DNA of 64,000 nt, from positions 1-64,000 of the IMG/VR virus record IMGVR_UViG_3300012798_000001, one strand, 5' to 3'. Below are positions 1-64,000 of this stretch, in pieces (the first letter of the stretch is position 1; each line of letters opens with the position of its first letter). The notes beneath the pieces were generated by a model, which was not told where the DNA came from, did no database searches, and saw nothing but the letters and a program-made list of their open reading frames with translations. The position numbers and the translations under genes are program-made. This stretch comes from a virus.

Positions 1-1
1 C

Positions 2-865
2 CCGGCCCGTGAAATCATCCATGACCGGTGGAACACGCTCTACCACCCGCTCTGCGGCACCTCGCCGATCTTCGCTTGCGGCCTGGCGGCGATGCAGGGC
101 CTCAAGATTCAGAACAACTCGGCGTCGTTCTTCGCCAACGGGTCGCAGCCGGGCGGCATTCTGACTGCGCCTGCCGCGATCAGCAACGAGACCGCAGAGC
201 GGCTGAAGGCCCATTGGGACACCAACTACTCCGGCGCCAATGTGGGCAAGGTCGCCGTCCTCGGTGACGGGCTCAAGTATGAGCCGATGGCGATCAATGC
301 GGTCGACTCGCAACTGATCGAGCAGCTCAAGTGGACGGCCGAGGTGGTGTGCGCCACGTTCGGGGTCCCGGCGTACATGGCCGGCATCGGCGCGATGCCG
401 ACCTACAACAACATCGAGGCCCTGAATCAGCAGTATTACTCGCAGTGCCTCCAGATCCACATCGAGAGCATCGAGCTTTGCCTGAACGAGGGGCTCGCCC
501 TGCCGAAGAGCTACGGCACCCGGTTCTCGATTGACGATCTGCTGCGGATGGATACGGCCACCATGGTCAAGGCCGAGGCCGAGGCGGTGGGCGCCGGCAT
601 CAAGTCGCCCAACGAGAGCCGGCTGCGGCTCAACCTGCCGCCGGTCAAGGGCGGCGCCACCCCGTACCTCCAGCAGCAGAATTACTCGCTCGCAGCCCTC
701 GACGATCGCGACCGCGGCGACCCGTTCGCCAAGCCGCAGCCGGCGCCGCAGATCGCGCCGCCGGAGGATACCGAGGAAGACGAGCCGGACGACCAGGACG
801 CGCAGGCCGATGCCGCGCGCTTCGCGGCCCGGCTGGTCCATCGGCTGCTCCAGGCCGCAGCGTGA
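2..865 (+). CDS. phage portal protein, HK97-type (5' end outside window)
   Basis: Frame is open from nt 2 with no upstream stop. The motifs '[23 protein letters not shown]...[19 protein letters not shown]' and the acidic C-tail fit my recollection of Phage_portal C-terminal halves. The stop overlaps the next start (GTGA). Confidence 0.85.
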
Positions 866-2523
866 TCCACGTCGTCCTCGGTCCACCGACCGCAGGGAAA
901 TCGACCTACGTCCGCCAGCACGCCGCCGAGGGCGACGTGATCGTGGACTATGACGCCATCGCGCAGGCGCTCGGCTTTCCCGAGGAGCACGACGCCGATG
1001 GCTCGATCCGCCTCGTCACCCGGTCGGCGCGGGCTGGCGCCATCAACCGGGTCATGGACGGGCTCGACCACGACGCTTGGATCATCGGCACCAATCCGAA
1101 GCCGGCCCGGCTTCGTGCCTACGCCCGAGCTGGCGCGGACTTCACCGTGATCGACCCCGGCCAGGAGGAGTGCCTCCGGCGGGCCAAGCAGCAGGGTCGG
1201 CCGCCGGGCGTCTTCGTGGCAATCAATGACTGGTACGCCGCTCCGCCGGTCCTACCGGGCACAGAAGAAGGGCCAAAGGCGATGCCGAGATCGAGTACCG
1301 CAGTCGCCGACATGGCCGATGCCGTCTATGACGCGGTCAAGGTCTATGTCGGGCGTGAGGTCGGTGGCGTGAAGCCCCAGCTCGTCTCGCTACAGCGCGA
1401 CCTCGACGCCGCAGTGACGATGCTGTCGGTCACGGAGGCGGAGTTGAAGGAGGCCCGCGCCGACGCTGCGACGGCCCGAGCCGAGACCGCGGAGATCCGT
1501 GTCGTCGCCAACGGCCTCGTCGAGCGGTTGGGCGAAGTCATGGAGCGGCTGTCCATCCTGGAGGCCAGGGCGCCCGTTGCCGGCCCTGCGGGGCCCGCTG
1601 GAGCCGATGGCGCCCCAGGGGCGCCCGGTCCCAAGGGCGACCCCGGCGAGGCCGGCCCAGCGGGCCCCCAGGGGCCGCCCGGCCAAGACGGCCTGGCCGG
1701 CCCCCGAGGGGAGCGCGGCGAGGCCGGTCCGCAGGGCCCGGAGGGGCCGGCGGGCCGCGACGGCCAGGACGGGGCGCCTGGGCCTGCTGGCGCGCCTGGA
1801 GAGGCGGGTCCCGCGGGTCCGCAGGGGCCGGAGGGCCCGGCTGGCCAGGACGGGGCCCCTGGGCCCGCTGGCGCGCCCGGCGAGGCCGGTCCGGCTGGTC
1901 CCCAGGGGGAACAAGGGCAGGCAGGGCCGGCGGGCCTGGACGGCGCCCCTGGCGCGCCCGGCGAGGCCGGTCCGGCTGGCGAGGCTGGCCCGGCTGGCCC
2001 CCAGGGCGAGAAGGGCCTGGACGGGGCCCCTGGCCGCGACGGGCGGGATGGCGTCCAAGGGCCGCAGGGCGAGCGTGGCTTGCCCGGTCCCCAGGGCGAG
2101 GCCGGTCCGATCGGCATGCGCGGCGAGCGCGGCGAGAAGGGCGACCCTGGCCGCGACGGTGCCAGCGTCCACAGCATCGACCTCACGACCCCGGATGGCG
2201 GCCGGACGTTCGTCTTCAGCATCGAGGGCGGCGACGAGGTGCTGGTCAACGAGATCCAGACCCGCACGACGATCTGGCAGGGCATCTACGAGGAGGGCCG
2301 GACCTACCAGCCCGGCGACATCGTCACCCTCGGCGGCTCCTGGTGGCACTGCAACCTGGAGACCACCGAACGGCCCGGTGAGGCCAAGGCGGCCTGGAGC
2401 CTCACGGTCAAGCGTGGCCGCGACGGCAAGGACGGCAAGAACGGCGAGCGCGGCGAGCGCGGGCCGCAGGGCCCGGCGGGGCGTGACCTGACGCAGATCG
2501 CTCCGGATGGGAGCAAGTTCTGA
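862..2523 (+). CDS. P-loop kinase-like domain / coiled coil / collagen-like repeat / CBM-like C-terminal fusion protein
   Basis: Single 553-aa ORF. It has a Walker A 'GPPTAGKST' in the first ~130 aa, then a heptad-like Ala/Glu/Leu segment, ~64 uninterrupted G-X-Y triplets, and a globular tail '[27 protein letters not shown]'. A second 8-triplet GXY run follows. Confidence 0.8.
1582..2160 (+). repeat. collagen-like Gly-X-Y coding repeat (~64 triplets)
   Basis: '[37 protein letters not shown]...[13 protein letters not shown]' reads without interruption. Nucleotide units such as ggcgcgcccggcgaggccggtccggctgg recur. Confidence 0.9.
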
Positions 2524-2825
2524 TGGCCACCACCCCGCTCGTGACCCTGGAGATGGTCCGGGATCGCCTCCGCATTGACGCGGTGGACGATCAAGCCGAC
2601 GTGGAGCGGATGATGCGGGAGGGCACCCGCATCGTCCTGGGCTACCTCAAGCCGCAGCCCGATGGCTCGCCCCTCGACCGGGGCTGGACCATCGACACGG
2701 TGCCCGAGCACGTCCAGACCTCGATCCTGCTCGTGATCCGGGCGATCTACGACGGGGAGGATAATCCGCTGTCGCAGGCGGTGATCGACATCCTCCACCG
2801 CGACCGGGACCCGGCGCTCGCATGA
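2523..2825 (+). CDS. head-tail connector (gp6-like / DNA-packaging connector family)
   Basis: 'LVTLEMVRDRLRIDAVDDQADVERMMREGTRIVLGYL' is the typical N-terminal signature. ATGA coupling to the upstream gene and the gene position also fit. Confidence 0.7.
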   Translation: MATTPLVTLEMVRDRLRIDAVDDQADVERMMREGTRIVLGYLKPQPDGSPLDRGWTIDTVPEHVQTSILLVIRAIYDGEDNPLSQAVIDILHRDRDPALA

Positions 2826-3682: not shown

Positions 3683-4095
3683 GCCCAGACTGCTCCAACG
3701 AGTTGATCGAGGCAATCCGGGCGCGGCTGCTGGCCGACCCGGCTGTCACCGCCATCGTCGGCACCCGCGTATTCGATCGGCCGGACATGGGGGTCGACTT
3801 CCCCTGGCTCCAGATCGGCGAGACCCTGCTTCAGCCGTTCGAGGCGCAGTGCGTCACCGGGACGAGCATCTTCCTGACACTGCATGGCTGGGGTCGCGAT
3901 GGCCATGCGGGCGACGACATGCGGGCGCTCGGCGCCGCGGTCTACGCCAGCCTCCATACGAAGAAGTTCCTGCTGCCTGGGCCCTACGCCCTGCAACTGA
4001 TCGAGCATCAGAACACGCAGGTTCTTCGCGATCCGGACGGCACCACCCGGCACCTCGTGACGGAGTTCCGCGCCGACACGACGGCCGATCTCTGA
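3679..4095 (+). CDS. tail terminator/completion protein (DUF3168-like)
   Basis: Internal ATG at 3679 overlaps the upstream stop (ATGA). 'IRARLLADPAVTAIVGTRVFD...FPWLQIGE' is a DUF3168-type pattern. It lies directly before the major tail gene. Confidence 0.6.
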   Translation: MSPDCSNELIEAIRARLLADPAVTAIVGTRVFDRPDMGVDFPWLQIGETLLQPFEAQCVTGTSIFLTLHGWGRDGHAGDDMRALGAAVYASLHTKKFLLPGPYALQLIEHQNTQVLRDPDGTTRHLVTEFRADTTADL

Positions 4096-5053: not shown

Positions 5054-5181
5054 GCCTGTGGGAGTTGACGGCGCTGGTGGACGGCTTCAACGCCGCGCAT
5101 GGCGGCGAAGACGGCGGTGGCGTCGCTCCGATGACCGTGGAGCGGTTGAAGCAGATCAACCCTCCACGGACGATCCATTGA
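4954..5181 (+). CDS. gpT-like extension of the tail assembly chaperone (-1 frame; G-T fusion 4625..4954/4954..5181)
   Basis: The -1 frame reads 'GKSSGG...LNLARLLGLGGALGYTAEEVWRMSLWELTALVDGFNAAHGG'. This is a GTA rcc01693/TIGR02216-like domain. It begins upstream of the only internal ATG (5050), which argues for a fusion. Confidence 0.65.
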   Translation, partial: SSGGRGGGDGLNLARLLGLGGALGYTAEEVWRMSLWELTALVDGFNAAHGGEDGGGVAPMTVERLKQINPPRTIH

Positions 5182-5548
5182 GCGAAGCCCACAGGGCATC
5201 TGCGCGCTCGTAATCTCGGTTCACCCTGGCCCGATCGCAGTTGAGCACCGTGCGCATCCGGGACGCGGTCATGTAAGTCGATGTGACCGATGCCAGGGTC
5301 TCGGCCGAGAACTTCGGGTCGGCCCGCAGGAGTTTGATCAGGCTCACCATCGGGTCCCCAGGCCGGCGGCTCTTCGTGCAGGCGTAGTCCCCACCCTCGG
5401 CTTCGCCCAATGCCTTCGCGTAGTCGACATAAGCCGCAGGCGCGATGGCCTGGGGCTGGGGCTGGGGCTCGCCGCCCGTGCTGACATAAGCGCCGACTGC
5501 GCCGCCGAGCAGGGCAGTAACGAGCGTGCCGATCAAATAACTAGCCAT
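5156..5548 (-). CDS. small N-terminally membrane-anchored protein (moron)
   Basis: Start 'MASYLIGTLVTALLGGAVGAYV' has GGAG 7 nt upstream. It is the only reverse-strand gene inside the tail module. Its 3' end overlaps the end of the gpT frame. Confidence 0.55.
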   Translation of the reverse strand: MASYLIGTLVTALLGGAVGAYVSTGGEPQPQPQAIAPAAYVDYAKALGEAEGGDYACTKSRRPGDPMVSLIKLLRADPKFSAETLASVTSTYMTASRMRTVLNCDRARVNRDYERADALWASLNGSSVEG

Positions 5549-5601
5549 CGAAATCTCCGGGTTCGAGTCCTTTTGCATTGACATAATCGAAAGTTGCCCG
5601 A

Positions 5602-8220
5602 ATGGCAATGACCGAACTCGAAACGCTGCTAGTCACGGTCGAAGCAGATCTTCGCCGTTACTCCAAGCAGATGCAGCAGCTTGGGCAGATGACCGATGGC
5701 GGCTTCAAGAAAGCCGGCAAGGCCGCCAATGACGGCCTTTCGACCGTCGAGCAACGCGCCAAGCAGGCTTCGGCCCAGGCCCAGAAGGCGCTTCAGGACG
5801 CGCAGCGGTCCTCTCGCCAGTTCGGCCAGACGATCCAGAACGTCGGCTATCAAGTCGGCGACTTTTTCGTCCAGATCGAAAGCGGCCAAGGCTTCCTGAG
5901 AGCCCTCACGCAGCAAGGCACTCAGGTTCTCGGTGCCTTCGGCCCCTGGGGCGCCGTGCTCGGTGCTGCGGCCGGGTCCTTGGCAGTCCTGGCTTCGACG
6001 ATCGGCTTGTTTGGCCCTTCGGTTTCGGAGGCAACCGAAGCGGTCACGAAGCTCAATGACCAGCTCGGGACCACCGACGAACTCACGAAGGCTGCGGCTG
6101 GCGGTTACGACGCGCTGATCCAAAAGGTCAAGGAGTCGACCCGCGCCACCCGTGAGGCGTTCCTCGCCGAGCTGGCGATCGAAGGCCGCGAGGCGGAGAA
6201 GAAGCTCAAGGAGACCGCGGAGACCGTCGCCGGGGCCATGGGCGACATCAACTCTGCGGTCGCCGAGCGGGTGTCCGTCCTCTTCGGCAACGCGGCCGGT
6301 GGCGTGTCGCTGGTCGGGCAGGAGATCAACAAGCTCCAGGACCAGATCGCGAAGGGCGTCGCCTCGCCGGAGGATTTCGAGCGCCTGAACAAGCTCTTGC
6401 GCGATGGCGGCACGGCGAGCGGCGAGGCCACTGCGCGGGCCAAGGAACTCCAGGAGCAGATCGCCAGCCTCATCAAGACGATCGAGTCCGGCAAGGCGAC
6501 CCCGGACCAGTACCTCCAGCTCGCCACCATCCTCCGCGATCTCGCGCAGTCGGCGACGCCAGAGCTGTCGGCGAAACTCCTGGAGCAGGCGGACAACCTC
6601 GCTGTCGCGGCCGGCGCCACCGAGAAGACGAACGACAAGCTCAAGGAGATCAAGGCGACGACCGATGCCGTCACTGGCGCTACGGACGCCGCGACGAAGG
6701 CGACGCTCAACAATGCGGCGGCGATGGATACCGGGACCGGCGCGGCTGGCCGGTATGCCGATGCGATCCGTGGCGCGGTCAAGGCGCTGCAAGAGCAGCA
6801 GCGGGCGTCCGGCTACAATTCCAACCCGACGTTCGAGGTCGGTGGCGGCAACCTGAGCTTTGGCGGGTCGCGTGAGCGCGCTCCGGGCACGATGGGCCCG
6901 ACCTTCGGCAACCTGGACCCGTCATACCTGAAAGACGAGCCCGCGTGGTTCGATAGCGACGCGATCAACGACGCCATCAACCCGGTCAAGGTGCTGGGCC
7001 TCGGCTTCGCCAAGGTCGTCCCGGAAGCGAAGGAGTTCACGGACAGCCTCAAGGCCGCGGAGGCGGCTGCCGTCGATCTGTCCAAGCTGCCGAAGACGTT
7101 CACGATCGGCGGCGGCGGCGTCAACTTCAAGGGCCTCCCCAACCGGACCGACTTGCTCGGCGACCTCTTCGGATCGGAGAGCCCGGCAGATCTGACGACT
7201 AGCGAGTTCTCGCGCTCGATTTATGGGAAGGGCAGGGAAAAGGAGCCCAAGACCCCGAAGGAAAAGAGGACCCCGGAGGACCGGGCCGAAGACCGCACTC
7301 AGGCGCTCAAGGACGAGATCGCCTACAACGAGCAGCTTGCCGCGGTCTATGGCCAGGGCATCGAAGCCCGCAACCGGGTCACCGCCTCGTATGAGGCGCT
7401 CAAGGAGGCCCGGAAGACCGGGCTGGCCGAGGGCTCGGAAGAGTTCCGCCAATTCATCGACACGCAGACGGCCCAGAACGTCGTCAACCTCGGGCTTGAG
7501 CATCGCCTCGACCTGATGAAGCAGGGGCAGGCGCTTACCGAGTCCTTGATGACGGACCAGGAGCGCCAGAACAAGCTGCTCGCCGACTACCAGGAGATGC
7601 TCCGGGCCGGCGCCATCGGCACCGAGATCTACAAGCGCGCCGTCGCCGCCGCCACCAGCGAGAACGACAATCTGGTCGAGGCGATCGGTGGTGTCGGTGA
7701 CGCCATCGAGTCCGGCATCCAGGGCGCGACGAGCTTTGCCGACGCCCTGGCCAAGATCGGCCTCCAGCTCTTGAGCCTCCTGTCCAAGGGGCTGTTCGGC
7801 GCCGGCCCGCTCGGTGGCCTGTTCAATAACATCTTCGGGGTCGCGGCCGGCGGCATCCTCGGCACCCCGGCCAGCGCCATCAACGCGGGCGCGACGGCGC
7901 CGCTGGCGGGGCTCGGCACCGGGTTCCGCCGGTCCTTCGCCGCAGGCGGTTGGGGCGGCCCCGGCCCGGTCCTCGTCGGCGAGAGCGGGCCCGAGATCGC
8001 GAACATGCCGAGCCGCGCCTACATCTCGCCGGCCAATGCCACCCGGCGGATGCTCCAGGGCGGCAACGATAACCGGCCCATCGAGATCAACGTCAACGGC
8101 GCCACCGGCAACGCCGAGTTGAAGCAGATGGTCGCCCTCGGCGTCGATCAAGCGGTCAAGCGATCGGGCCGCAACGTGCCGGGCATCCAGCGCAATTACA
8201 ACCTGCGGTTCGGTCCCTGA
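5602..8220 (+). CDS. tail tape measure protein
   Basis: 872 aa, Ala/Gln/Lys-rich and helical, with a Gly-rich hydrophobic segment near aa 730-790. Position is after the chaperones. Confidence 0.85.
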   Translation: MAMTELETLLVTVEADLRRYSKQMQQLGQMTDGGFKKAGKAANDGLSTVEQRAKQASAQAQKALQDAQRSSRQFGQTIQNVGYQVGDFFVQIESGQGFLRALTQQGTQVLGAFGPWGAVLGAAAGSLAVLASTIGLFGPSVSEATEAVTKLNDQLGTTDELTKAAAGGYDALIQKVKESTRATREAFLAELAIEGREAEKKLKETAETVAGAMGDINSAVAERVSVLFGNAAGGVSLVGQEINKLQDQIAKGVASPEDFERLNKLLRDGGTASGEATARAKELQEQIASLIKTIESGKATPDQYLQLATILRDLAQSATPELSAKLLEQADNLAVAAGATEKTNDKLKEIKATTDAVTGATDAATKATLNNAAAMDTGTGAAGRYADAIRGAVKALQEQQRASGYNSNPTFEVGGGNLSFGGSRERAPGTMGPTFGNLDPSYLKDEPAWFDSDAINDAINPVKVLGLGFAKVVPEAKEFTDSLKAAEAAAVDLSKLPKTFTIGGGGVNFKGLPNRTDLLGDLFGSESPADLTTSEFSRSIYGKGREKEPKTPKEKRTPEDRAEDRTQALKDEIAYNEQLAAVYGQGIEARNRVTASYEALKEARKTGLAEGSEEFRQFIDTQTAQNVVNLGLEHRLDLMKQGQALTESLMTDQERQNKLLADYQEMLRAGAIGTEIYKRAVAAATSENDNLVEAIGGVGDAIESGIQGATSFADALAKIGLQLLSLLSKGLFGAGPLGGLFNNIFGVAAGGILGTPASAINAGATAPLAGLGTGFRRSFAAGGWGGPGPVLVGESGPEIANMPSRAYISPANATRRMLQGGNDNRPIEINVNGATGNAELKQMVALGVDQAVKRSGRNVPGIQRNYNLRFGP

Positions 8221-8879
8221 TGGAGACCTACTCGTTCCCGCCCGCCCTGTGGGCGGCATCGCAGTCGTGGTTCCTCGACGCCAGGACGCGCTCGGGCGGC
8301 GAAACCGTCACCGGGCGCGAGCCGGTGGTCTCGTCCGGTCTGTCCCGGTGGATGTGCAGCCTCACCTTCCCGCTGTACAGCCGCGAGACCATCCTCGCCC
8401 ATGGCGCGCTGCTGGCGCAGTTGGAGGGCCGGGCCAACGCGGTCCGGTTGCCCTTCTGCCCCGGCCCGACCGGCGCCCGTGTGCTGCCGCGGATCAACGG
8501 CGTTCCCTACGCCGGCAGGAACCTGTGGCTTCGGCCTGGCGTGCTTCCGGAGAGCCTCGGCGTCGCCCCCACGGTCCGCGTCACCGCACTTGCCGGCGCG
8601 ACCGAGATCGTCCTGAACATGGGCACGCTCGTGGGGCTCGAACCCGGCGTCATCTTCGGCCTTGGTGAACGGCTGTACATCGTCACCGAGATGCACGGCG
8701 TCTCGGTCACGAACGTCAAGTTCCGGCCGAAGCTGCGCTTTCAGATCAACGCCGGCACCGCCGTCAACTGGAAGAACCCGCGCTGCATCATGCGCCTCCA
8801 GACGGATGACAGCGGCCGGGCCGATATCGCGCTCCGCCGGACCGGCTCGGCGCAGATGGATTTCGTCGAAGTCTGGTGA
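8220..8879 (+). CDS. distal/minor tail protein
   Basis: ATGA-coupled to the tape measure gene. Its position equals lambda gpM / RcGTA g12. Confidence 0.55.
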   Translation: METYSFPPALWAASQSWFLDARTRSGGETVTGREPVVSSGLSRWMCSLTFPLYSRETILAHGALLAQLEGRANAVRLPFCPGPTGARVLPRINGVPYAGRNLWLRPGVLPESLGVAPTVRVTALAGATEIVLNMGTLVGLEPGVIFGLGERLYIVTEMHGVSVTNVKFRPKLRFQINAGTAVNWKNPRCIMRLQTDDSGRADIALRRTGSAQMDFVEVW

Positions 8880-8885
8880 TCCCCG

Positions 8886-9494
8886 ATGCCACTGCTGCCT
8901 CAGACGGCTCTCGCGCAAGCGGAGGGGCTGCACATCGTTGCCTCGCTCTTCGTCACCTTCGCCTTCAAGACCTCGCCGCTGCGGGTCTGGGAAGGTGACG
9001 GCCCGATCGATCGGGAAGGCTTGACGTGGCAGGGCGTGGGCATGCCCTCGGGCCGCTCTGGGAACCCGCTCTATTCGATCGAGGGGCTGGAGCTGTCGAT
9101 GGACGGCTCCGCGCCGCAGCTCAACCTGTCGCTGTCCGGCGTCGACTCCACTGTGGTCGCTGCGGCCCGCGAGGACGTCGCCAACGAGGAGATCGAGGGG
9201 CGCGACCTGACCATCCGGATCGGGTTCTACGACGCCACGCAATACCCCGAGATGATCCCGCTTGACGACCTGATCGTCCTCGGGGTCTGGACGATGCAGA
9301 AGCCGAGCTTCTCGGCAACGGGTGTCACGCTCCGAAACATCACGCTCCCCTGCGAAACGCTGTTCGTGCAGCGCAGCCGGGCGCCGTTCGGCCTGCTGAC
9401 CGATCGGGACCAGCAGCGGCGCTTCCCCGGTGATCTCGCCTGCCAGTTCCCTCCGACCCTCGTTGACAGGGACGTCGCGTGGCCGCGTCGGTGA
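8886..9494 (+). CDS. minor tail protein (gpL / DUF2163-like position)
   Basis: 'PLRVWEGDGPIDREGLTWQGVG' resembles the DUF2163 pattern. Gene order also fits. Confidence 0.5.
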   Translation: MPLLPQTALAQAEGLHIVASLFVTFAFKTSPLRVWEGDGPIDREGLTWQGVGMPSGRSGNPLYSIEGLELSMDGSAPQLNLSLSGVDSTVVAAAREDVANEEIEGRDLTIRIGFYDATQYPEMIPLDDLIVLGVWTMQKPSFSATGVTLRNITLPCETLFVQRSRAPFGLLTDRDQQRRFPGDLACQFPPTLVDRDVAWPRR

Positions 9495-9904
9495 CCGGCT
9501 CGGCACCGCAGATCCTGGATGCCCTCGACCGGCACGTCCGGCTCGCCCGGTCGACGCCGTTCGAGCTGGGCCGGATGGACTGCTCGCTTTGGGTGGCCGA
9601 TTGGGTGTCCATGCGGACCGGGGTCGACCTGGCCGCTGATCTCCGCGGCCGGTACAAGACCCGCGCTGAAGTGCTGCGGCTGATCATCCCGCTCGGCAAC
9701 CTCGTGCGCATTGCCGCCCGGCGGCTGGACTCCATCGGCGCCGCGGTCATCGACCCGGCCCAGGCCCAGCCGGGCGACATCGGCATCGTCGCCACCACGG
9801 ATGGCCCGGCGCTGGCGCTGTTCGCCGATGGCGCTTGGCAGACCAAGACCGGCGACCCGCTGTTCTCGACCCCCACCGCATCCTTTGCCTGGAGATTGCC
9901 GTAG
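9479..9904 (+). CDS. tail-tip associated protein (position of lambda gpK / RcGTA g14)
   Basis: GTG start overlaps the upstream gene. 'GRMDCSLWVADWV...AQPGDIGIV' is reminiscent of NlpC/P60-like Cys peptidase cores. Confidence 0.45.
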   Translation: MAASVTGSAPQILDALDRHVRLARSTPFELGRMDCSLWVADWVSMRTGVDLAADLRGRYKTRAEVLRLIIPLGNLVRIAARRLDSIGAAVIDPAQAQPGDIGIVATTDGPALALFADGAWQTKTGDPLFSTPTASFAWRLP

Positions 9905-12900
9905 ATGCTGGCAGTCCCTCTTGCGATCGGCGCCGCGGCGGCCGGTGCCGGCGCTGCTGCCGGTGTGGCCGCTGCCGCGACGACGGGCCTCTTCCTCGGC
10001 ATTGGCGCCTGGGGCTGGACCGCGGTTGCGGTCGGTCTGAGCGTGCTCGGCACCGTCGCGCAGATGATGCTGTCGCCGACCCCGCCCAAGCCGCAGATGC
10101 AGGAGGGCGACGCCAGCATCAAGCAGGCGATCCCGCCCCGCGTCCGCGTCTACGGCCGGCAGCGGATGGGCGGCGCCTTCCTCTACTACGACAGCACCTC
10201 GGAGGGTGATCTCAAGACCCTGATCTGCCATGCCGCGCATGAGATCGACGGCTACGAGGAGGACTGGCTCAACGACGAGCGGGTCCAGACCGATAGCGAG
10301 GGCCAAGTCACCGACGATCCCTGGTGGCAGGGGAATGACGATCCGATTTTCGGTGACCCCAGCGACGGCCACAGCACCGTTACGATCCTGCATTACCTGG
10401 GCTCGCCGAATCAGACGATCGACAGCTTCGACGAAAAGTGGACTGAGGCGCATCGGGGCCGCGGCCTCAACTGCACCTATGTCAAATATTCGGATCTGAA
10501 GGACGAGGACCAGATCAAGGTCTTCCCGAGCGGGCCGCCGCCCTACCGGGCCGTGCTTCGAGGCGCGAAAGTCTACGACCCGCGCAACGGGGCCATGGCG
10601 CCGGGCAACGAGGCGACCTACGCATACAGCGACAATTCCGCGCTCGTGATCCTCGATTTCCTGACCCGCAAAGAGAATGGCGTGCCGGTCGGGTTCGGCA
10701 TCCCGTGGTCCCGGATCAACCTCGACAGCTTCGCCTTCGCGGCGGCCGTTTGCGATCAGAACATCTCACTCAAGGCTGGCGGCGCCGAGCGCCGCTGGCG
10801 CGCCTGGGGCGCCTACGAGCTGACCGAGGACCGCAAGGACGTCCTCCAGGATCTCCTCGACGGCTGCGGTGGCCGACTCACGCAAGGGCCGGACGGCACC
10901 ATCGGCCTCGCTGTCGGAGCCGGCACGACCAATGGCGCCGCCGCGGTCGGGATGCCGGCCCCCACGGTCGTCATCGACGACGATCAGCTCTATGGCTGGG
11001 ATCTCACGAACGGCAAGACCGGGCTTGAACGCATCAACGAGGTCCGCGCGACCTACGTGTCCGAGATCTGGTCCTGGGCCGAGACCGAGGCCGGCATCCA
11101 GCTCGACCAAGCCGGTATCGATCGCAACGGCATCGAGAGCAGTCAGGTCAAGCTGCGCTTCGTCCCGGCCGAGAGCCAAGCCCAGCGTATCGCCCGCGAG
11201 ATGCTGCGCCGGGGGAGCCCGACCTGGATCGGCAAGATCCGCACCACCATCGCGGGGCTCGATGCCTGGGGCGAGCGGTGGATCAGGCTCCAGATCGCAG
11301 AACTCGAAATCGACGGCATCTTCGAGGTCGGCTCGATCCGCCTCGACCGCGAAACCATGATGGTCGAGATCGACGTCTCCTCCTATGACGGGTGGTGGGA
11401 CTGGACGACGGCGACCGACGAGGCGGACCCGGCGATCCCGCCTCCGGACCTGGACGAGGACGCGAACATCCCGGTCCCGCAGAACGTGTTCGTCGTCATC
11501 GAGAACCGGCTGATCAACGGCAATACCTATGCCGCGGTCGGGGTGATCTCTTGGGACCCCCCGCCACGGCCGGTCTATGTCGGCCGCGCCATCTACCGCC
11601 CGGTCACCACCCCGGAGTCGCCCTGGCAGCCGCTCCCGGTGGCCCAGGAGGCCAATACCGTTAAGACCGACCCGCTGGTGGATGGCCAGGGCTACGAGGC
11701 GCGGGTGCGCTTCATCGCGCCGCGGGGAGCCGGCGGCGATTGGTCCCCGGCGGCGCCGTTCACCGCCATCGCCGATCCGGTGGTGCCCGACGCCCCGATC
11801 CTGACCAGCGGCGAGATCGTCGGCAGCACGGTCGAGCTGGAGACGACCGCCGCCAACAATCCCAACGTCGCGGCGCTCCGCTTCTGGCGCGACACCGATT
11901 CCGTCTTCACGGGCGCGGTCGATATCAGCGGCCCGCTCTACACGGCCCCGAATGCGGTCGCCCACTGGGTCGATACGCCCGGTCCTGGCCGCTTCTATTA
12001 CTGGGCCACGGCCGAGAACTGGAGCGGCCTGCGCAGCCCTCCATCGGGCCCAGCGGGGCCGTTCGACTTCGTCCCGGCTGTCCCGGTCATCACCTCGCCG
12101 ACGAGCCCGTTCGTCACCAACGACAACACGCCGACCTTCAGCGGCACCGGCCAGGACGGCACGACGATCCATCTGTTCGAGGGCCCGACCGACAAGGGCT
12201 CGGCTCCTGTCGTCGGCGGGGTCTGGAGCATCACCTCCTCGACGATGGCGGATGGCACCCGCAACGTCACCGCGCGGGCCTTCGCCGGCCCCCTGGTCAG
12301 CGCTGCCAGCAACATCATCGTCACCACGATCGACACGACCGTCTCGGCGCCGATCATTACCACCAGCTCGCCGCTCACGACGACCGACACCACGCCGGAC
12401 ATCTCGGGCACCTCGGAGCCCAACGCGAGCATCGCCCTGTTCCGCGGCGGCTCGACCCCGGCGGGCTCGACGGTTGCCAATGGTGCCGGGGTCTGGACCG
12501 CGACCCTCTCCGCGCTCGCGGTCGGTCCCTACAGCATCACCGCGACGCAGACCGACAGCGCGGGCAACACCTCCGGCCCGTCCGCGGCGCTGACCCTCAA
12601 CATCCAGCCCGTCGCCCCGACGATCACGACCGGCAGCTTCACGACCTACGACACCACGCCGGTCATCGCTGGCACCTCCACGGCATCGGCCTCGATCAAG
12701 ATCTACGACGATGGAGTTTTGTCGACCACTCTGACGGCGGACGGCTCTGGCAACTGGAGTGGACCGACCGCGGTCCTGTCCAGCGGCGCGAACACCATCA
12801 CCGCCACGCAGACGGTTGCTGGCGTCGAGAGCCCGCAGTCGTCGGGGATCACGGTCACCGTGACCGCGATGGACAGCGCTGCTGCGGCGTACATCGCGGC

Positions 12901-13630
12901 GATGACGGTCGAGCCGACGAGCGCCCGGATGGGGCTCATCAACGACCTTGTCGTCGCCCTCAAGGCGGCCGGGGTCTGGTCCAAGCTGGACTGCCTCTAC
13001 CTGCTCGCCGCGCACGATGCCCAGGCGGCCAGGCTGAATGTGAAGAGCCCCGCGGCCTTCGCCCTCGTCGCCAATGGCATGCCCATCTACACCACGGACC
13101 GCGGCTACAAGGGCACAGGGCTAGGCAGCACGCCCGGCGGCTATCTGGCCGGGGGGTTCAACCCGTCCACGGCCGGCGGCGTCTACGCGCAGAACAGCGC
13201 GCATATGGGCGTCTGGGTTCGGACGGCGAACACGTCGGTTGCAGCGGGCACGGGCGGCGACATCGGAACCGTTGGCGCCGCGATCTACACCAAGCATCCG
13301 ACTGCCGGCAACATCACCACGCAGATCAACGACGGCACCGCCAGCAATACGGCCGGCGGCACCCCGAACAACGTCGGGCACTACGCGATCTCTCGGACGG
13401 TCAACACGGGGTATGCCAAGTATCACGAGGGCGTGGCGCAAGCCTCCTCCTCGGTGGTCTCGACCGCGGTCCCGAACTTCATCTTCTCGATCCTGCGGAC
13501 TGGCGCCACCTCCTACAGCGACGCCGAGATCTGCGCCGCCCATTGGGGCTCGGGCCTGACCGCGGGCGAAGTGACCAGCCTCTATAACGCGCTGCACACC
13601 TATCTGCAGGGCGTCGGCGCGGTGGCCTGA
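9905..13630 (+). CDS. host specificity / central tail fibre protein (gpJ / RcGTA g15-like)
   Basis: 1241 aa. Gly/Ala-rich hydrophobic N-terminus, then a Phage-tail_3-like core, three Ig-like repeats and a distinct C-terminal domain. Confidence 0.8.
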   Translation: MLAVPLAIGAAAAGAGAAAGVAAAATTGLFLGIGAWGWTAVAVGLSVLGTVAQMMLSPTPPKPQMQEGDASIKQAIPPRVRVYGRQRMGGAFLYYDSTSEGDLKTLICHAAHEIDGYEEDWLNDERVQTDSEGQVTDDPWWQGNDDPIFGDPSDGHSTVTILHYLGSPNQTIDSFDEKWTEAHRGRGLNCTYVKYSDLKDEDQIKVFPSGPPPYRAVLRGAKVYDPRNGAMAPGNEATYAYSDNSALVILDFLTRKENGVPVGFGIPWSRINLDSFAFAAAVCDQNISLKAGGAERRWRAWGAYELTEDRKDVLQDLLDGCGGRLTQGPDGTIGLAVGAGTTNGAAAVGMPAPTVVIDDDQLYGWDLTNGKTGLERINEVRATYVSEIWSWAETEAGIQLDQAGIDRNGIESSQVKLRFVPAESQAQRIAREMLRRGSPTWIGKIRTTIAGLDAWGERWIRLQIAELEIDGIFEVGSIRLDRETMMVEIDVSSYDGWWDWTTATDEADPAIPPPDLDEDANIPVPQNVFVVIENRLINGNTYAAVGVISWDPPPRPVYVGRAIYRPVTTPESPWQPLPVAQEANTVKTDPLVDGQGYEARVRFIAPRGAGGDWSPAAPFTAIADPVVPDAPILTSGEIVGSTVELETTAANNPNVAALRFWRDTDSVFTGAVDISGPLYTAPNAVAHWVDTPGPGRFYYWATAENWSGLRSPPSGPAGPFDFVPAVPVITSPTSPFVTNDNTPTFSGTGQDGTTIHLFEGPTDKGSAPVVGGVWSITSSTMADGTRNVTARAFAGPLVSAASNIIVTTIDTTVSAPIITTSSPLTTTDTTPDISGTSEPNASIALFRGGSTPAGSTVANGAGVWTATLSALAVGPYSITATQTDSAGNTSGPSAALTLNIQPVAPTITTGSFTTYDTTPVIAGTSTASASIKIYDDGVLSTTLTADGSGNWSGPTAVLSSGANTITATQTVAGVESPQSSGITVTVTAMDSAAAAYIAAMTVEPTSARMGLINDLVVALKAAGVWSKLDCLYLLAAHDAQAARLNVKSPAAFALVANGMPIYTTDRGYKGTGLGSTPGGYLAGGFNPSTAGGVYAQNSAHMGVWVRTANTSVAAGTGGDIGTVGAAIYTKHPTAGNITTQINDGTASNTAGGTPNNVGHYAISRTVNTGYAKYHEGVAQASSSVVSTAVPNFIFSILRTGATSYSDAEICAAHWGSGLTAGEVTSLYNALHTYLQGVGAVA
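12082..12865 (+). repeat. three tandem bacterial Ig-like domain repeats (coding)
   Basis: 'ITSPTSPFVTNDNTPTFSGTGQDGTTIHLFEG', 'ITTSSPLTTTDTTPDISGTSEPNASIALFRG' and 'ITTGSFTTYDTTPVIAGTSTASASIKIYDDG'. Each ends in '...ITATQT'. Confidence 0.75.
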
Positions 13631-13655
13631 ACACCAGATCAACGGAGACACGCCG

Positions 13656-14045
13656 ATGCCCGATGCGCTGCGGCCAGCGAAGATCATCGCTCGCCATGTG
13701 AGTGCTGCCGCCAAGATCGAGGTCGCTCACGGCAGCGATTGGAACGACGGCCTCCAGGTCCGCGAATGCGGCGCCGACATGGATCTCACCGACAGCGTCA
13801 TTGAGATCATGGTCCGCCCGACCTTCGACGACCCGATCCTCCTCGCATGGCTGTCGTCGGCGACCGGAGACATCCTCTTCGACGACGCGGCCCATGGGAA
13901 GTTCGGGATCTTTTGGCCCGGCTGGAAGGTCTCGACCATCCCGGCCGGCGCCTGGGTCTTCGCAATGCGGGTCCTCAAGGGCGGCGAAGCCCGAGAGATC
14001 GCCCGCGGTCCCTTCATCGTCTATGCGGCGGAGTATCTCGGATGA
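13656..14045 (+). CDS. hypothetical tail-associated protein (paralog 1)
   Basis: GGAGA SD. Shares a beta-rich pattern with the next gene ('DLTDSVIEIMVR' versus 'LEGATLEMNVR'). Confidence 0.55.
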   Translation: MPDALRPAKIIARHVSAAAKIEVAHGSDWNDGLQVRECGADMDLTDSVIEIMVRPTFDDPILLAWLSSATGDILFDDAAHGKFGIFWPGWKVSTIPAGAWVFAMRVLKGGEAREIARGPFIVYAAEYLG

Positions 14046-14392
14046 AGACCTGGGGGCATCAGGATCTCATTGCCGCGACCAATGCGGATTGGGTTGAGAC
14101 CCTCACCCTCGGGGTCGACGGCGTGCCGCTCGTCCTGGAGGGCGCAACGCTGGAGATGAATGTCCGGCGCCGGCCCGGCTCGGTCGACCCGCACCTTACC
14201 CTTGAGACAGGCGCCGGCCTCACCCTGGTCGACCCGGTGGCGCGGACCGCCACACTGGAGGTCGATGCCCTGGACATGGCCCAGCTCGGCCCCGGCGGTT
14301 ACGTGTACGACGTTATCGCCACCAATGGCACGACCAAGACCCGCGTCCTTGAGGGCGCGGTGAACGTGACCCGCGGCATCACCCGGCCTTAG
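14042..14392 (+). CDS. hypothetical tail-associated protein (paralog 2)
   Basis: ATGA overlap with the upstream gene. The 'GGYVYDVIATNGTTKTRVLEGAVNVTRG' tail is similar in pattern to paralog 1. Confidence 0.55.
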   Translation: MKTWGHQDLIAATNADWVETLTLGVDGVPLVLEGATLEMNVRRRPGSVDPHLTLETGAGLTLVDPVARTATLEVDALDMAQLGPGGYVYDVIATNGTTKTRVLEGAVNVTRGITRP

Positions 14393-14469
14393 CGGCCCCT
14401 CGCATCCCCCGATCGTCAACGCGGCCTGGCCGCCACCCCCAACCGCGCCTAGCCGAGGAGAGAAGCGGC

Positions 14470-16659
14470 ATGTTCACGGCGATCCAAGACAGCGTGATCG
14501 AACTCGTCGCCAGGGGCGAGCGCGGCGTCCCTGGCACGCCCGGCGATTATGACTACGAGACCGCCGATGCGGCGGCCAATCAGTTCATCCCGGCTATCCG
14601 GAAGACGGTCCGGGTCGGCGGCCGGCATACGACGCTCGATCGCGGCTCGGCGATCTATGTCCGCGTTGCGAGCGAGCCGAACCATCCCGGCAAGTTCCAA
14701 TCGCTTGATCTCGGCTGGTGGGAGCTGAACGAGGAGTACCCGACTCTCCGGATGTTCGGGGCGCGCGGCGACGGCGTCACCGACGACACCAACGCGATCC
14801 AAGACGCCTTCGATTACTGCGTGGCCAAGTCGTGCGCGGTCAGCGTGACGAAGGGCAACTACCTCGTCGGCCCGCTCTATTTCAACGGCCGGGCTTGGCG
14901 GGACTCGCCTTCGACCAACGGGGCCCAGCCCAGCGCCCGCGGCCTGATCGGCGAGGGATTGATCGTCTTCGAAGCCCGGTTCGTCGCGAAGACCGGAGCT
15001 TACACGTCCGGACAGGCCGTGATCACTGCGCGCAACCTCACCTTCAAGGTGATCACGGGAATCCACATCGATTGCAACTTCGTCGCCGATGTCGGCCTCG
15101 ATGTGGCGTGGATCGGGGGCACCAGCTCGGGTGACTCCACGGCGCCGGCCTGCGGGAACACGTTCACGAATCTCCTGGTCGAGAACGCCCTTGCCATGGG
15201 CATCAACTTCAATCAGGCGGCGGACTGCCTCATCCAGAACATCACCTATCGCGGCGGCACGCCTCCGGTGGCGTTCTCGCTCAAGCTGCCGGGCGGCGCG
15301 ATCCAGGCCAACAATCTGCGCGCCTATCGCGGTCGCTGGGAGATCGCGTGCCAGAACGCGCAGTTCAGCGATTCCCTGATGCTCGGTGGCCTCCAGTTGA
15401 TCGGCGCGGCCATCAACATGGTCACGATCTCGTCGTGCCAGCTCTCAACCGATCCGCTGACCGGCTATACGGTCTATTCCAGCGCTACCGAGGGTTACGG
15501 CACGCACGAGGTCTTCTTCCATGCCTGTGATTTCCTGGGCGGCGCGGCGCATACTTACTACTTCGCCGGTCGCTGGAACATGGGCGCGAAGTTCATCGGC
15601 ACCCATTTCGAGTTGAAGCCGTCCGATACCATGTTCAACCCGGCCGTCTGGACCCCGGTCGGCGGCCCCGGACGTCCGCCTATCTTCGATTTCGAGCATT
15701 GCTCGTGGCATGGCGGTGGGCCGGGGTTGCCCGCCAGCATCCCGGAAAAGGTTCTCGTCGGGACCTATGCCTGCAAGCGGCCGGACACCACTGTCATCGC
15801 TCGCCGCGACTTCCCGAGCGATATCCAGGTCGGCACCGGCTTGATCGTGGCCGACAAGGCAAACCTGACCGGGAACGGCTTCTTCGCCCGGGGACAGGGC
15901 GTGGCGGCTCCGCCGACCGACGCCTTCTTCGGCCAGGGCTACAACCGCTCCGGCTCCCTGGCAGAGGTCGAGCAGTTCATCCGCGGCCAGATGTGGCGGC
16001 TCACGCAGTATGACGGCGCGACGTTCACCACGCATCTCACGTTCAACGCCGGCTCCGCGAACGGGCTCTACCCCGGCAACGACAACGTCCGGAACCTGGG
16101 CATCGCCTCGAACCGGTGGGCAACGGTCTTCGCCGGCACTTCGGCGATCTCCACGTCGGACGCGCGGCTGAAGACTCCGATCGAGCCACTCACCGAGGCC
16201 GAGATCCAGGCGGGGTTGGCGCTCGGCGACGCGATCGGCTCATTCCACTTCCTCGACGCCATGGAGGACAAGGGCAATGACGCTCGCATCCATTGCGGGC
16301 TCACGGTCCAGGGCGCGATCGAGATCATGGAAACCCATGGGCTCGACCCGATGGCCTATGGCTTCATCTGCTATGACGCATGGCCGGCGGAGGTGATCCA
16401 ATATCCGCCGGTCTACGATGCAGACGGGGTCCTGATGCAGCCGGGCTATACCGAGGTCGTCCGGCAGGCCGGCGACGTCTACAGTTTCCGCGCCGACGAG
16501 TTGCAGTTCTTCGTGATCCGCGCCCTCATGGCCCAGCGGGCCGAACAGGAGGGGAAGATCGGCCTCCACGAGCAACGCATCGGCTCGCAGGAGATCCTTC
16601 TGGCGGCACAAGAAGAGCGCCTCATGAACCTGGAGGCGCTCTTCGGAGAGACGACCTAA
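14470..16659 (+). CDS. tailspike/tail fibre with pectate-lyase-type beta-helix and C-terminal S74 intramolecular chaperone domain
   Basis: 'LRMFGARGDGVTDDTNAIQDAFDYC' is a Pectate_lyase_3 N-cap. The C-terminal 'TSDARLKTPIEPLTEAEIQAGLALGDAIGSFHFLD...RIHCGLTVQ' matches the endosialidase-type chaperone with its S-D-x-R-x-K cleavage motif. Confidence 0.85.
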   Translation: MFTAIQDSVIELVARGERGVPGTPGDYDYETADAAANQFIPAIRKTVRVGGRHTTLDRGSAIYVRVASEPNHPGKFQSLDLGWWELNEEYPTLRMFGARGDGVTDDTNAIQDAFDYCVAKSCAVSVTKGNYLVGPLYFNGRAWRDSPSTNGAQPSARGLIGEGLIVFEARFVAKTGAYTSGQAVITARNLTFKVITGIHIDCNFVADVGLDVAWIGGTSSGDSTAPACGNTFTNLLVENALAMGINFNQAADCLIQNITYRGGTPPVAFSLKLPGGAIQANNLRAYRGRWEIACQNAQFSDSLMLGGLQLIGAAINMVTISSCQLSTDPLTGYTVYSSATEGYGTHEVFFHACDFLGGAAHTYYFAGRWNMGAKFIGTHFELKPSDTMFNPAVWTPVGGPGRPPIFDFEHCSWHGGGPGLPASIPEKVLVGTYACKRPDTTVIARRDFPSDIQVGTGLIVADKANLTGNGFFARGQGVAAPPTDAFFGQGYNRSGSLAEVEQFIRGQMWRLTQYDGATFTTHLTFNAGSANGLYPGNDNVRNLGIASNRWATVFAGTSAISTSDARLKTPIEPLTEAEIQAGLALGDAIGSFHFLDAMEDKGNDARIHCGLTVQGAIEIMETHGLDPMAYGFICYDAWPAEVIQYPPVYDADGVLMQPGYTEVVRQAGDVYSFRADELQFFVIRALMAQRAEQEGKIGLHEQRIGSQEILLAAQEERLMNLEALFGETT

Positions 16660-17741
16660 CTCCGGCTGGGCCGCGACGCTCCCGGCCACAGGTCGCCACC
16701 GCGGCGCACGAGCGTTCCCAGGGGCCGCTCGATGTAATGGTAGGAGACGAAGCCCGCCACGATGCACAGGGGCAGCACAATCCAGACCGCCGGCCCCTGC
16801 TCGTGGCCCAGGGCCATCCATGCTTTGTTGATGATCGCGACCGCGAACACGTGGCACAGGTAGAGGCTATATGAGGCGTCGCCAAGCTTGGCCAGGGCCC
16901 GGCCGGCGGCGCCCGTCACCTCCCGGATGGCGAGGCCGACATAGAACACCATCGCCGCCGGCACGCCCCAGGCGATGGGCCGAATCCAATGAAGCGGCAG
17001 GATGTCCTCCAGCGGCGCTCCTGCGCCGGAGCCGACGAGCCACACGACCGGCACCAGGGCGATGGCGACCGGCAGCGCCGCGCGGCGTGTAACCCACCCT
17101 TGACGATACAGCCAATACATCCCCATCCCGGCCACAAACTCGATGACGACGGGGTGCCCCACGAAGGTCAGGATCGCAGTGTCGCGTCCGGTGATGCTGG
17201 TCAGGATCATCAGGCCGGCGAAGAGGACTGCTATCGCAGCCACCCTGGCCCCGATCTTCAGCCCCAGCACCGCGGCGAAGCACAGGTAGAAGAACATCTC
17301 ATATTGCAGCGTCCAACCGACCGACATCAGCGGCTGCACGGTGCCGCTGACCGGATGGGCGGACGGGATGAAGAACAGTGAGGTCAGGACCAGATCCGGC
17401 GTCACCGTCGTCCAGCGGAGCAGCGATGGGAATGCGGTGGCCCCGGCGGCGAGCGCCAGGGTGAAGAACCAATACAGCGGCACGATCCGCCGGATGCGGC
17501 GGCCTAGGAAGATGCGCGGCGTGTTCTCCCGACCCGTGGCCGGGTCGCTCACGAGCATCATGATGAAGCCGGAGATCACGAAGAAGAGGTCGACTCCGGC
17601 CTCTGGCAGTCGGGCCCAGGAAAAGAAGGCCGTCGCGTCTGGGGCGGTGGTCCCAAACCGGGCATGCACCAGGACCACCGAGACCGCTGCCAGCGCCCGG
17701 AGGATCTGAATTCCCTGAATGTTTTCAGGCTTTTGTGCCAT
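16656..17741 (-). CDS. acyltransferase family 3 membrane protein (O-antigen/EPS O-acetylase type)
   Basis: 'IQGIQILRALAAVSVVLVHA...LFFVISGFIM' with about 10 hydrophobic segments. Convergent with the tailspike gene, with a 4-nt overlap. Confidence 0.85.
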   Translation of the reverse strand: MAQKPENIQGIQILRALAAVSVVLVHARFGTTAPDATAFFSWARLPEAGVDLFFVISGFIMMLVSDPATGRENTPRIFLGRRIRRIVPLYWFFTLALAAGATAFPSLLRWTTVTPDLVLTSLFFIPSAHPVSGTVQPLMSVGWTLQYEMFFYLCFAAVLGLKIGARVAAIAVLFAGLMILTSITGRDTAILTFVGHPVVIEFVAGMGMYWLYRQGWVTRRAALPVAIALVPVVWLVGSGAGAPLEDILPLHWIRPIAWGVPAAMVFYVGLAIREVTGAAGRALAKLGDASYSLYLCHVFAVAIINKAWMALGHEQGPAVWIVLPLCIVAGFVSYHYIERPLGTLVRRGGDLWPGASRPSRS

Positions 17742-63530: not shown

Positions 63531-64000
63531 ATGCCCAAACCGAAGTTGAGCGCTCCGCGGCCAAGCACTGACCGCCCCGTGACTGGCCCGGAACTGCTGT
63601 CTCATGGGGGCAGCATCGCCATCCCCCCGGAGTGGCCAGCGCACCAGACCGAGGCCCGGCGGCTTGAGCAGCTCGTGCCCTACGCCCGCAACGCTCGGAC
63701 GCACACGGACGAGCAGGTTGGGCAGATCATGGCGTCGATGCGGGAGTGGGGCTTTACGATCCCGGTCCTGGTGGACGAGAGCGACAGCATCATCTGCGGT
63801 CATGGCCGCGTCCTGGCAGCCCAGCGGCTCGGCTACGAGCACGTCCCGGTCATGGTGGCCCGCGGCTGGAGCGATGCGAAGAAGCGGGCATACATCCTCG
63901 CCGACAACAAACTCGCGCTCAATGCCGGGTGGAATGACGAGCTGCTGCGGCTGGAGATCTCCGATCTCGCCGACATGGGCTTCGACATCCCGCTCCTCGG
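63531..64000 (+). CDS. ParB-like nuclease-domain protein, probably the N-terminus of a ParB-DNA methyltransferase (3' end outside window)
   Basis: 'LVPYARNARTHTDEQVGQIMASMREWGFTIPVLVDESDSIICGHGRVLAAQRLG'. Open to the window edge. Confidence 0.75.
   Translation, partial: MPKPKLSAPRPSTDRPVTGPELLSHGGSIAIPPEWPAHQTEARRLEQLVPYARNARTHTDEQVGQIMASMREWGFTIPVLVDESDSIICGHGRVLAAQRLGYEHVPVMVARGWSDAKKRAYILADNKLALNAGWNDELLRLEISDLADMGFDIPLL

Follow-up and report, generated by a model that had tools for sequence, protein, structure and literature searches.

The first 64,000 nucleotides of the IMG/VR virus record IMGVR_UViG_3300012798_000001, in the following called the window, contain directly after the portal gene a single open reading frame (ORF) of 553 amino acids (aa) on the forward strand (862..2523; ORF listing and raw sequence). 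Its product joins a predicted P-loop kinase-fold domain to a helical stalk, a long collagen region and a C-terminal domain that includes a module resembling chitin-binding domains (Table 1). The ORF is a genuine in-frame fusion of two modules, each of which is normally encoded directly after the portal gene. Its GTG start overlaps the TGA stop codon of the portal gene as GTGA (862-865), in agreement with the coupling to the portal gene that the initial annotation of this DNA had proposed; in homologues, the overlap reads ATGA.

The G+C content at third codon positions (GC3) in the annotated frame is 0.80-0.94 in all four segments of the ORF, and an independent ENA contig encodes a protein identical to the 553-aa product. 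The fused single frame is therefore real. Fused full-length homologues were found at 75, 75, 70, 53, 42 and 37% identity, and at least 12 fused homologues stem from different samples. The same-frame GC3 over all segments, the identical protein in an independent assembly and these homologues rule out a sequencing or assembly frameshift that artificially joined two genes, which the initial annotation had named as a danger to its reading and to which we give practically no credence.

Table 1. Features of the kinase-collagen ORF and its two neighbours, in window coordinates.
Feature	Position (nt)	Strand	Evidence or remark
Portal gene, C-terminal part	1..865	+	Pfam Phage_portal E=5e-51; phrog_2271/phrog_12
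Whole fused ORF, 553 aa	862..2523	+	Identical protein on ENA contig; full-length fused homologues P0001-P0007
Predicted P-loop kinase-fold domain, aa 1-127	862..1242	+	phrog_4581 E=7e-31; AlphaFold; Foldseek; BFVD
Walker A motif GPPTAGKST, aa 7-15	880-906	+	
Pro/Gly-rich flexible linker, aa 128-145	1243..1296	+	Low pLDDT; holds in-frame ATG (Met141)
Amphipathic helix, then helical, probably coiled-coil, stalk, aa 146-240	1297..1581	+	Model and heptad-like pattern
Collagen region, 65 Gly-X-Y triplets, aa 241-435	1582..2166	+	Pfam Collagen E=3.4e-36
C-terminal globular region, aa 436-518	2167..2415	+	phrog_1289 E=1e-21; phrog_16748; structure model
CBM5/12-like module, about aa 474-518	2281-2415	+	After small beta domain; Foldseek
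Second collagen run, 8 triplets, aa 519-542	2416..2487	+	Conserved in P0001-P0005 and L159
Conserved C-terminal tail, aa 543-553, and stop codon	2488..2523	+	Alignment
Head-tail adaptor gene	2523..2825	+	phrog_442/phrog_40; starts at ORF stop codon; same neighbour in homologous loci

The amino-terminal kinase-fold domain and its relatives

Profile matches and structure models identify aa 1-127 as a predicted P-loop domain of kinase fold, which we do not assign to a specific enzyme family. These residues match phrog_4581 (E=7e-31), phrog_9644 (E=1e-23) and phrog_2071 (E=1.6e-12), and aa 3-50 match Pfam AAA_33 under its gathering score (E=1.5e-4). The AlphaFold model (20 homologues) reaches a predicted local distance difference test score (pLDDT) of 85, with values above 90 over aa 1-130, a region in which strands and helices alternate as in a P-loop kinase. 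Foldseek searches against the PDB retrieved tunicamycin-resistance protein, adenylate kinase and the polynucleotide kinases of T4 and C. thermocellum (E=4e-4 to 1e-3), and the query TM-scores (TMq) to 1ltq, 2ia5 and 4gp7 were 0.50-0.52 for a 170-aa query that included 43 residues outside the domain. Among the viral models in BFVD, the top match was a P-loop-HNH phage protein, followed by phage polynucleotide kinases. A profile of 46 sequences, run against PDB sequences, detected dephospho-CoA kinase (3e-4), CthPnk (8.5e-3), Pnkp1 (0.016) and T4 Pnk (0.25-0.64); single-sequence searches of the PDB sequences with aa 1-238 and aa 435-553 as queries gave nothing useful. The Walker A small-kinase-like domain that had been read from the motif GPPTAGKST is thus well founded. 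NCBIfam and PADLOC held no significant match for either end domain or for stand-alone kinases of this family, and therefore gave no link to a known defence-system component.

Conservation indicates that the kinase domain is under selection and that its catalytic-type residues (Walker A Lys13, Asp29-x-Asp31, Arg57, Arg107, Arg113) are intact. G7, G12, K13, D29, D31 and R107 are invariant in the 46-sequence alignment; R57 and R113 are conserved there to at least 90%, and without exception among the 20 sequences of the smaller set. The kinase is also the most conserved part of the fused proteins, with 53-95% identity as compared to 31-80% in the C-terminal domain. We predict that the substrate is probably a sugar hydroxyl of a nucleotide or nucleic acid. 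Two findings stand in the way of a narrower assignment. T4 Pnk has its catalytic D-x-x-R motif after strand 2 (D35/R38). This polynucleotide-kinase motif is not present in the window's protein, whose family instead has D29-x-D31-x-x-A34, in which the conservation of A34 reaches at least 90%. Moreover, the E-values against solved kinases are weak and indicate no single substrate class.

The likeness to T4 Pnk, CthPnk and CoaE consists of the P-loop kinase fold, the Walker A motif, an acidic residue after strand 2 and arginines in the lid region, at only 14-19% identity and with marginal E-values. The motif D-x-D-x-x-A resembles V-x-D-A-D of CoaE more than D-x-x-R of the polynucleotide kinases, but the domain is much shorter than CoaE and, unlike T4 Pnk, has no phosphatase partner. 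Literature searches found no description of the function or of a phosphorylated substrate of the kinase family, and no biochemical test of a member of the phage P-loop "polynucleotide kinase" family.

The kinase family is large, with at least 399 confirmed matches in IMG/VR and hundreds of clusters at 50% identity. We counted contexts over the closest 79 IMG/VR loci, fetched with the kinase profile. In 40 of them, the kinase is fused to the prohead protease, and 32 of these fusions lie directly after the portal gene. Stand-alone kinase genes account for another 19 loci (13 directly after the portal gene), answering the question, posed at first annotation, whether homologues carry the kinase separately. 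Fusions to HNH make up 13 loci, all 13 upstream of TerL, and a kinase-collagen fusion occurs at none of the 79. A profile search over 1.84 billion cluster representatives was partly contaminated by collagen columns, and its matches were re-scored with a kinase-only hidden Markov model. This left 134 top representatives with the kinase domain, 71 of them multi-domain; the partners among the 71 include Peptidase_S78 (39), a ClpP-type protease (3), HNH (5-6) and Pfam Collagen (4). A 2H/2'-5' RNA-ligase-like phosphoesterase domain is the partner in one of the 71, and RapZ_C in another (alignment A4). These two pairings are reminiscent of RNA end-healing enzymes and, together with the HNH fusions, are the only hints, and indirect ones, to the substrate.

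Similar contexts are found in cultured phages, where tblastn detected the kinase at 36-44% identity in four forms. In mycobacterial prophages, it is a "polynucleotide kinase" encoded between HNH and TerS; in Rhodococcus phage Mbo4, it is the N-terminal domain of an HNH endonuclease beside the cos end; in Corynebacterium phage CL31, it lies inside a "small terminase"; and in Corynebacterium phage LGCM-VI, it is the N-terminal domain of a protease/scaffold protein directly after the portal gene. Metagenomic stand-alone homologues of 132-160 aa are encoded between the portal gene and the protease gene. The window's domain thus has the invariant residues and the post-portal position of the phage P-loop family (phrog_4581, phrog_9644, phrog_2071; "polynucleotide kinase" in SEA-PHAGES), with 36-44% identity of aa 1-127 to the actinophage proteins and 44-55% to the metagenomic stand-alone genes. 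What sets it apart is the partner, since the family is usually joined to the prohead protease, to HNH or to nothing, and to a collagen/CBM protein only in a small minority of cases. The initial annotation had not recognised the architecture, and rightly so for the fusion, which is genuine and uncommon (3 of 54 loci, see below). The presence of a kinase-like domain beside the portal gene, which had also seemed unusual, is instead the normal position of a large phage family.

The collagen stalk, the C-terminal domain and the post-portal family phrog_1289

Downstream of the linker, AlphaFold predicts a helix at aa 146-167, and aa 173-237 are almost free of proline and glycine and have hydrophobic residues at heptad-like spacing, consistent with the helical segment and coiled coil suspected at the outset. 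The amphipathic helix at aa 149-163 matches the N-terminal helix of stand-alone fibre proteins, e.g. MFDVDVVARALV or MDQTVIDAIVGRV. The collagen region (Pfam Collagen PF01391, 123.3 bits, gathering cutoff 27.2, E=3.4e-36) comprises 65 uninterrupted Gly-X-Y triplets (195 residues, aa 241-435), in which X is mostly proline and Y mostly alanine, then proline. The initial annotation was right that this run is uninterrupted but slightly low in its count (about 64 triplets, 193 residues); the second, short run that it reported has 8 triplets (aa 519-542). If fully triple-helical, the 65-triplet region would be about 56 nm long, and the coiled coil would contribute about 10 nm more. All segments of the ORF product are acidic, with isoelectric points (pI) of 4.2-6.0 and the lowest value, 4.2, for the collagen rod. 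This charge is easier to reconcile with exposure on the surface than with close contact to packed DNA.

The model of aa 435-553 (pLDDT 83) consists of a small beta domain and a subsequent module of about 45 residues, with a W/Y-rich segment at aa 477-503. According to the model, this module has a small three-stranded beta fold that can be superposed on chitin-binding domains: Foldseek aligned it to ChiB, ChiC and ChBD1 with root-mean-square deviations of 1.0-2.1 A over 43-49 residues and 24-34% identity, at E-values (0.003-0.05) that are marginal given the small size of the domain. The match of aa 476-506 to the carbohydrate-binding module (CBM) family CBM_5_12 of Pfam (PF02839) speaks against the assignment in that it stays below threshold (16.9 bits, gathering score 26.2, E=6.5e-3). 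Homologue L115 passes the threshold (30.1 bits, E=5e-7), and other homologues score 15-23 bits. The superposition and the L115 match uphold the early comparison of the Trp/Tyr-rich domain with CBM5/12. W494-W495 (GGSWWHCN) stand where other members have M or L followed by W, Y, F or H. The matches to phrog_1289 (E=1e-21) and phrog_16748 concern the C-terminal domain as well, the former over aa 435-526. The tail (aa 543-553) is conserved in the 42%-identical P0005 (DLTQIGPDGKKW) and in L159 (DLTQLGPDGSKW), which has an unrelated N-terminus.

A word-indexed homologue search with the C-terminal domain alone found one near-identical fragment only. With tblastn, the domain was found in a 334-aa protein of Pseudomonas phage PAJU2, in Rhizobium phage RHph_X2_26 (a 473-aa protein named "putative portal protein"), in gp5 of EBPR siphovirus 3 and in many Stx phages, where it forms the C-terminal end of an 859-aa "portal protein" (52-54% identity). 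Pairwise E-values to the window's domain are 7e-19 for PAJU2 and 3e-12 for RHph_X2_26. In Enterobacteria phage 2851 (L103 3589-6168, CAQ82041) and about 90 other Stx-phage records, the portal is fused to the phrog_1289 module, which there consists of helical repeats and the CBM5/12 domain; L115 is an unfused version. PAJU2, RHph_X2_26 and Stx phage 2851 share the order TerL, protease-major capsid protein (MCP) fusion, portal, phrog_1289 protein and adaptor. Their phrog_1289 proteins (PAJU2 ORF007, RHph_X2_26 QWY83564, C-terminal half of the Stx 2851 portal) have the same beta/CBM5/12 domain, helix, stalk and synteny as the window's protein. They have no P-loop and mostly few or no triplets, whereas the window's protein adds a 127-aa kinase and 65+8 triplets. 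The label "portal protein" of phrog_1289 is wrong, since there is no portal domain, and appears to be inherited from the Stx-phage fusion.

For a wider view of this family, 54 IMG/VR loci were fetched with a narrow C-terminal alignment, a broader one being too divergent as a seed. The encoded proteins range from 133 to 587 aa and have 0-76 collagen triplets, and 39 of the 54 genes lie directly after the portal gene. Only 3 of the 54 loci carry the P-loop kinase, and a split version, i.e. a kinase gene with its own stop codon followed by a fibre gene, was not found among them. The closest relative, L107, is 90% identical to the window in the portal, 91% in the adaptor and 78% in the fibre, and has no kinase. 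The kinase-less fibre of L107 and the stand-alone proteins lead us to conclude that the window ORF is a kinase cassette plus linker placed in frame before an intact post-portal gene. Residues ~141-553 make up a complete phrog_1289-type post-portal protein, and the kinase, which close relatives lack, is an optional accessory, predicted to be an enzyme.

Shorter fused variants either have no collagen (P0150, P0151, P0148) or 12-18 triplets (P0157, P0158, P0138, P0143, P0007), and the combination of kinase, stalk and CBM domain is therefore a small family and not a single accident. On the 1-kb contig of the collagen-free P0150, nothing of the context is seen. A profile scan of genome contigs yielded four loci (Paraburkholderia, a betaproteobacterial metagenome-assembled genome (MAG), a Mesorhizobium MAG and an Acidobacteriota MAG), none with the fused architecture. 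Identities within the fused proteins are uneven: the window's protein and P0002 are 95% identical in the kinase and 39% in the C-terminal domain, as compared to 77% and 80.5% for P0003. Such a mosaic implies that recombination has taken place inside the gene, with the collagen repeats as a plausible site, and that the modules are shuffled between lineages.

Each half of the protein belongs to a populated family, the kinase has been annotated from fold similarity only, and collagen-like phage fibres are known. New are the combination itself and the recognition of both halves as post-portal modules that repeatedly fuse with neighbours. A post-portal collagen/CBM protein was not described in the publications found by literature searches, which yielded no functional study of either family.

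Genomic neighbourhood

Downstream of the adaptor gene, Pfam and PHROG matches identify head-closure, tail-completion, major tail, chaperone and tape-measure genes. Tail-tip, host-specificity and tailspike genes lie at 8220-16659, away from the ORF, and the PHROG "tail fiber" matches of the ORF product are restricted to the collagen repeats. As the gene is located between portal and head-tail adaptor, outside the tail module, we reject an assignment as tail fibre. The collagen/CBM part, which the initial annotation had likened to phage fibres, belongs instead to the widespread post-portal family phrog_1289.

On the long contigs of relatives, the order is ParB-methyltransferase, TerS, TerL, a 650-aa prohead-protease/major-capsid fusion, two glycosyltransferases, two small genes, portal, kinase-collagen ORF and adaptor. 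We had considered that protease and capsid genes were "missing" and replaced by the ORF, which is ruled out by the protease-MCP fusion upstream of the portal in relatives. Because of the gene order in relatives, the capsid genes are expected just outside the window, upstream of the portal gene. At the far end of the window, there is a ParB_N ORF (63306-64000), and in relatives a ParB-N6/N4 methyltransferase gene is found just before the TerS, TerL, capsid and portal genes. With a ParB-like gene at its end, the window therefore covers nearly the whole genome of about 72 kb; it is permuted relative to a 73.8-kb relative.

Several other genes at these loci deserve mention. The glycosyltransferase genes (phrog_14179, phrog_1579) between the protease-capsid fusion and the portal gene are at 6119-8046 in relative L003 and at 6188-8112 in relative L005, and the two enzymes might glycosylate capsid or fibre proteins. 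L005 also has, between TerL and the capsid gene, an 85-aa gene (3835-4092) with a Pfam match to the Acb2/Tad1-hairpin, of an anti-CBASS/anti-Thoeris sponge family, from which we conclude that anti-defence genes are inserted in this head module. In the window, the reverse strand between the tail assembly chaperone and tape-measure genes contains a 150-aa ORF (5156-5608), part of whose product is hydrophobic and membrane-like; relatives have reverse-strand ORFs at the same place (L003 14240-14644, L005 14135-14557). This 150-aa ORF could represent a moron within the tail operon. A tailspike-like gene (pectate-lyase fold and Peptidase_S74 intramolecular chaperone) and a subsequent reverse-strand Acyl_transf_3 gene occupy 14470-17741, and the latter could be an O-antigen-modifying lysogenic-conversion gene. 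An integrase gene is located at 40018-41133 on the reverse strand.

Possible roles of the fused protein

We lean, without great confidence, towards a model in which the protein forms a trimeric rod at the portal vertex, with three tethered kinases, exposed CBM heads and a second, kinase-less product. In this model, three chains would zip up through coiled coil and collagen to a rod of about 65-70 nm, anchored at the portal or neck vertex through the N-terminal helix. The tie to the portal vertex is suggested by the fixed position between portal and adaptor and by the portal fusion in Stx phages. The three CBM5/12 heads would be distal and free to bind polysaccharide, for example of the host envelope or matrix. 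The three kinase domains would hang on flexible Pro/Gly linkers at the portal-proximal end; while heads are being assembled and packaged in the infected cell, their target could be a nucleotide or nucleic-acid hydroxyl. The long form would come from translational coupling with the portal gene, and a start at Met141 with its Shine-Dalgarno-like motif would probably supply a kinase-less fibre as well.

Other head-associated and collagen-like phage proteins are useful for comparison. SPP1 gp12 is a collagen-like capsid decoration protein of about 6.6 kDa. Together with the head fibres of the alphaproteobacterial phages phiCbK and 7-7-1, it is among the collagen-like or fibrous head-associated proteins that the window's protein resembles by analogy only. 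The constituent proteins of the 7-7-1 head fibres have not yet been identified (PMC12796354). EPclA and EPclB of E. coli O157 prophages begin with a globular N domain, continue with a trimeric coiled coil and a collagen triple helix and end in a globular C domain, which gives a dumbbell-shaped trimer (PMC3368898). The window's protein has the same dumbbell design, but the end domains of EPclA/B (PfN/PfC) are unrelated, and their genes lie in the tail-fibre region. By analogy with EPclA, the coiled coil and the C-terminal domain that flank the collagen could act as trimer nucleators.

In favour of an exposed fibre on neck or head that binds a polysaccharide are the CBM5/12 module, the stalk of variable length and the acidic charge. 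Several points weigh against this location. No proteomic or structural datum places any phrog_1289 protein in the virion, and in the PAJU2 record ORF003, ORF010 and ORF015 are labelled as structural, whereas ORF007 bears no such label. Portal C-termini form a crown inside the capsid. The phrog_1289 module of the Stx phages, as a C-terminal extension of the portal, would thus be capsid-internal, and so is the prohead protease, the commonest partner of the kinase, of which 40 of the 79 close P-loop relatives form the N-terminal domain and which is a component of the procapsid interior. Furthermore, a post-portal gene position is typical of internal, portal-bound proteins of the SPP1 gp7/MuF type.

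These points speak for an alternative in which the phrog_1289 module sits within the procapsid, bound to the portal on its inner (crown) side, and the kinase is a cargo that enters the capsid through fusion to head-internal proteins (this module here, the prohead protease in other phages). The kinase could then be ejected with the DNA, and DNA or RNA ends or a defence signal would be among its conceivable targets at the very onset of the following infection. That the kinase is optional among near-identical phages, and that the head module of L005 contains the Acb2/Tad1-like anti-defence gene, would suit such a cargo. We nevertheless think it unlikely, because a rigid, acidic rod of about 56 nm would be odd to pack with DNA, and because a CBM5/12 head on a stalk of 0-76 triplets is typical of exposed fibres. 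Nor do the 13 P-loop-HNH fusions beside the terminase fit a packaged cargo, and the Stx portal fusion may be cleaved.

The linker between the modules bears on both the second product and the remaining alternative. AlphaFold predicts aa 137-146 to be disordered (pLDDT <50), and this region contains an in-frame ATG for Met141 (nt 1282-1284) with GAAGGG 9 nt upstream (nt 1267-1272). A Shine-Dalgarno-like GGAGGG precedes the equivalent ATG by 9 nt in L003 and L005, most fused homologues have a methionine near this position, and the stand-alone fibre proteins begin about ten residues further on, at the helix around Met151. The motif is weak in L008, and since it encodes Gly-Gly-Pro, its conservation may reflect a coding constraint; both observations argue against a start. 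The internal start at MPRSSTAV that had been proposed at first annotation has thus gained support from the motif and the nearby stand-alone starts, and we judge the chances of initiation at Met141, with a second kinase-less product, to be about evenly balanced.

The same motif, the disordered linker and the near-identical, kinase-less L107 would also agree with a neutral read-through fusion without mechanistic meaning, in which the kinase cassette, lacking a stop codon of its own, came to lie between the portal and fibre genes, the fibre is made from the internal start and the kinase extension is irrelevant or clipped. Genes of this locus overlap by 4 nt and have fused repeatedly (portal-fibre, kinase-protease, kinase-fibre), which would make such an event easy to picture. 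We regard it as just as improbable as an internal cargo: the fused state has been kept across lineages with about 53-56% kinase identity and with stalks of 0-68 triplets, the 54 post-portal loci include no split version, and any collagen trimer with long-form chains would necessarily carry the kinase.

On the biological side, the ORF is a meeting point of two phage families without characterised function. About half of the kinase's closest relatives are fused to the prohead protease, and the kinase family is tied to portal, protease and terminase genes. The post-portal CBM5/12 protein may account for head or neck fibres that some phages are known to have and to which no gene is assigned. The fusion in the window and the near-identical phage without kinase form a natural pair for testing the roles of kinase and fibre. 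The 73.8-kb contig Ga0193743_1000062 can stand in for the window as the member with kinase; the relative without it is IMG/VR 3300010367_000168. Should the kinase be virion-borne or linked to packaging, it would represent a new enzymatic activity in phage head assembly. More speculatively, and less probable to us than either alternative above, the kinases might be an unrecognised class of head-tethered enzymes, anchored to the portal vertex or procapsid by fusion to an adjacent head protein (protease, post-portal fibre, or HNH with terminase). They would work on DNA or RNA ends or on a nucleotide signal while the genome is packaged, or would travel in the virion to the next host, and the window's protein would be the form with three kinases on a portal-anchored collagen rod. 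What makes a conserved small kinase such a frequent partner of head proteins encoded near the portal is the broader and more interesting question.

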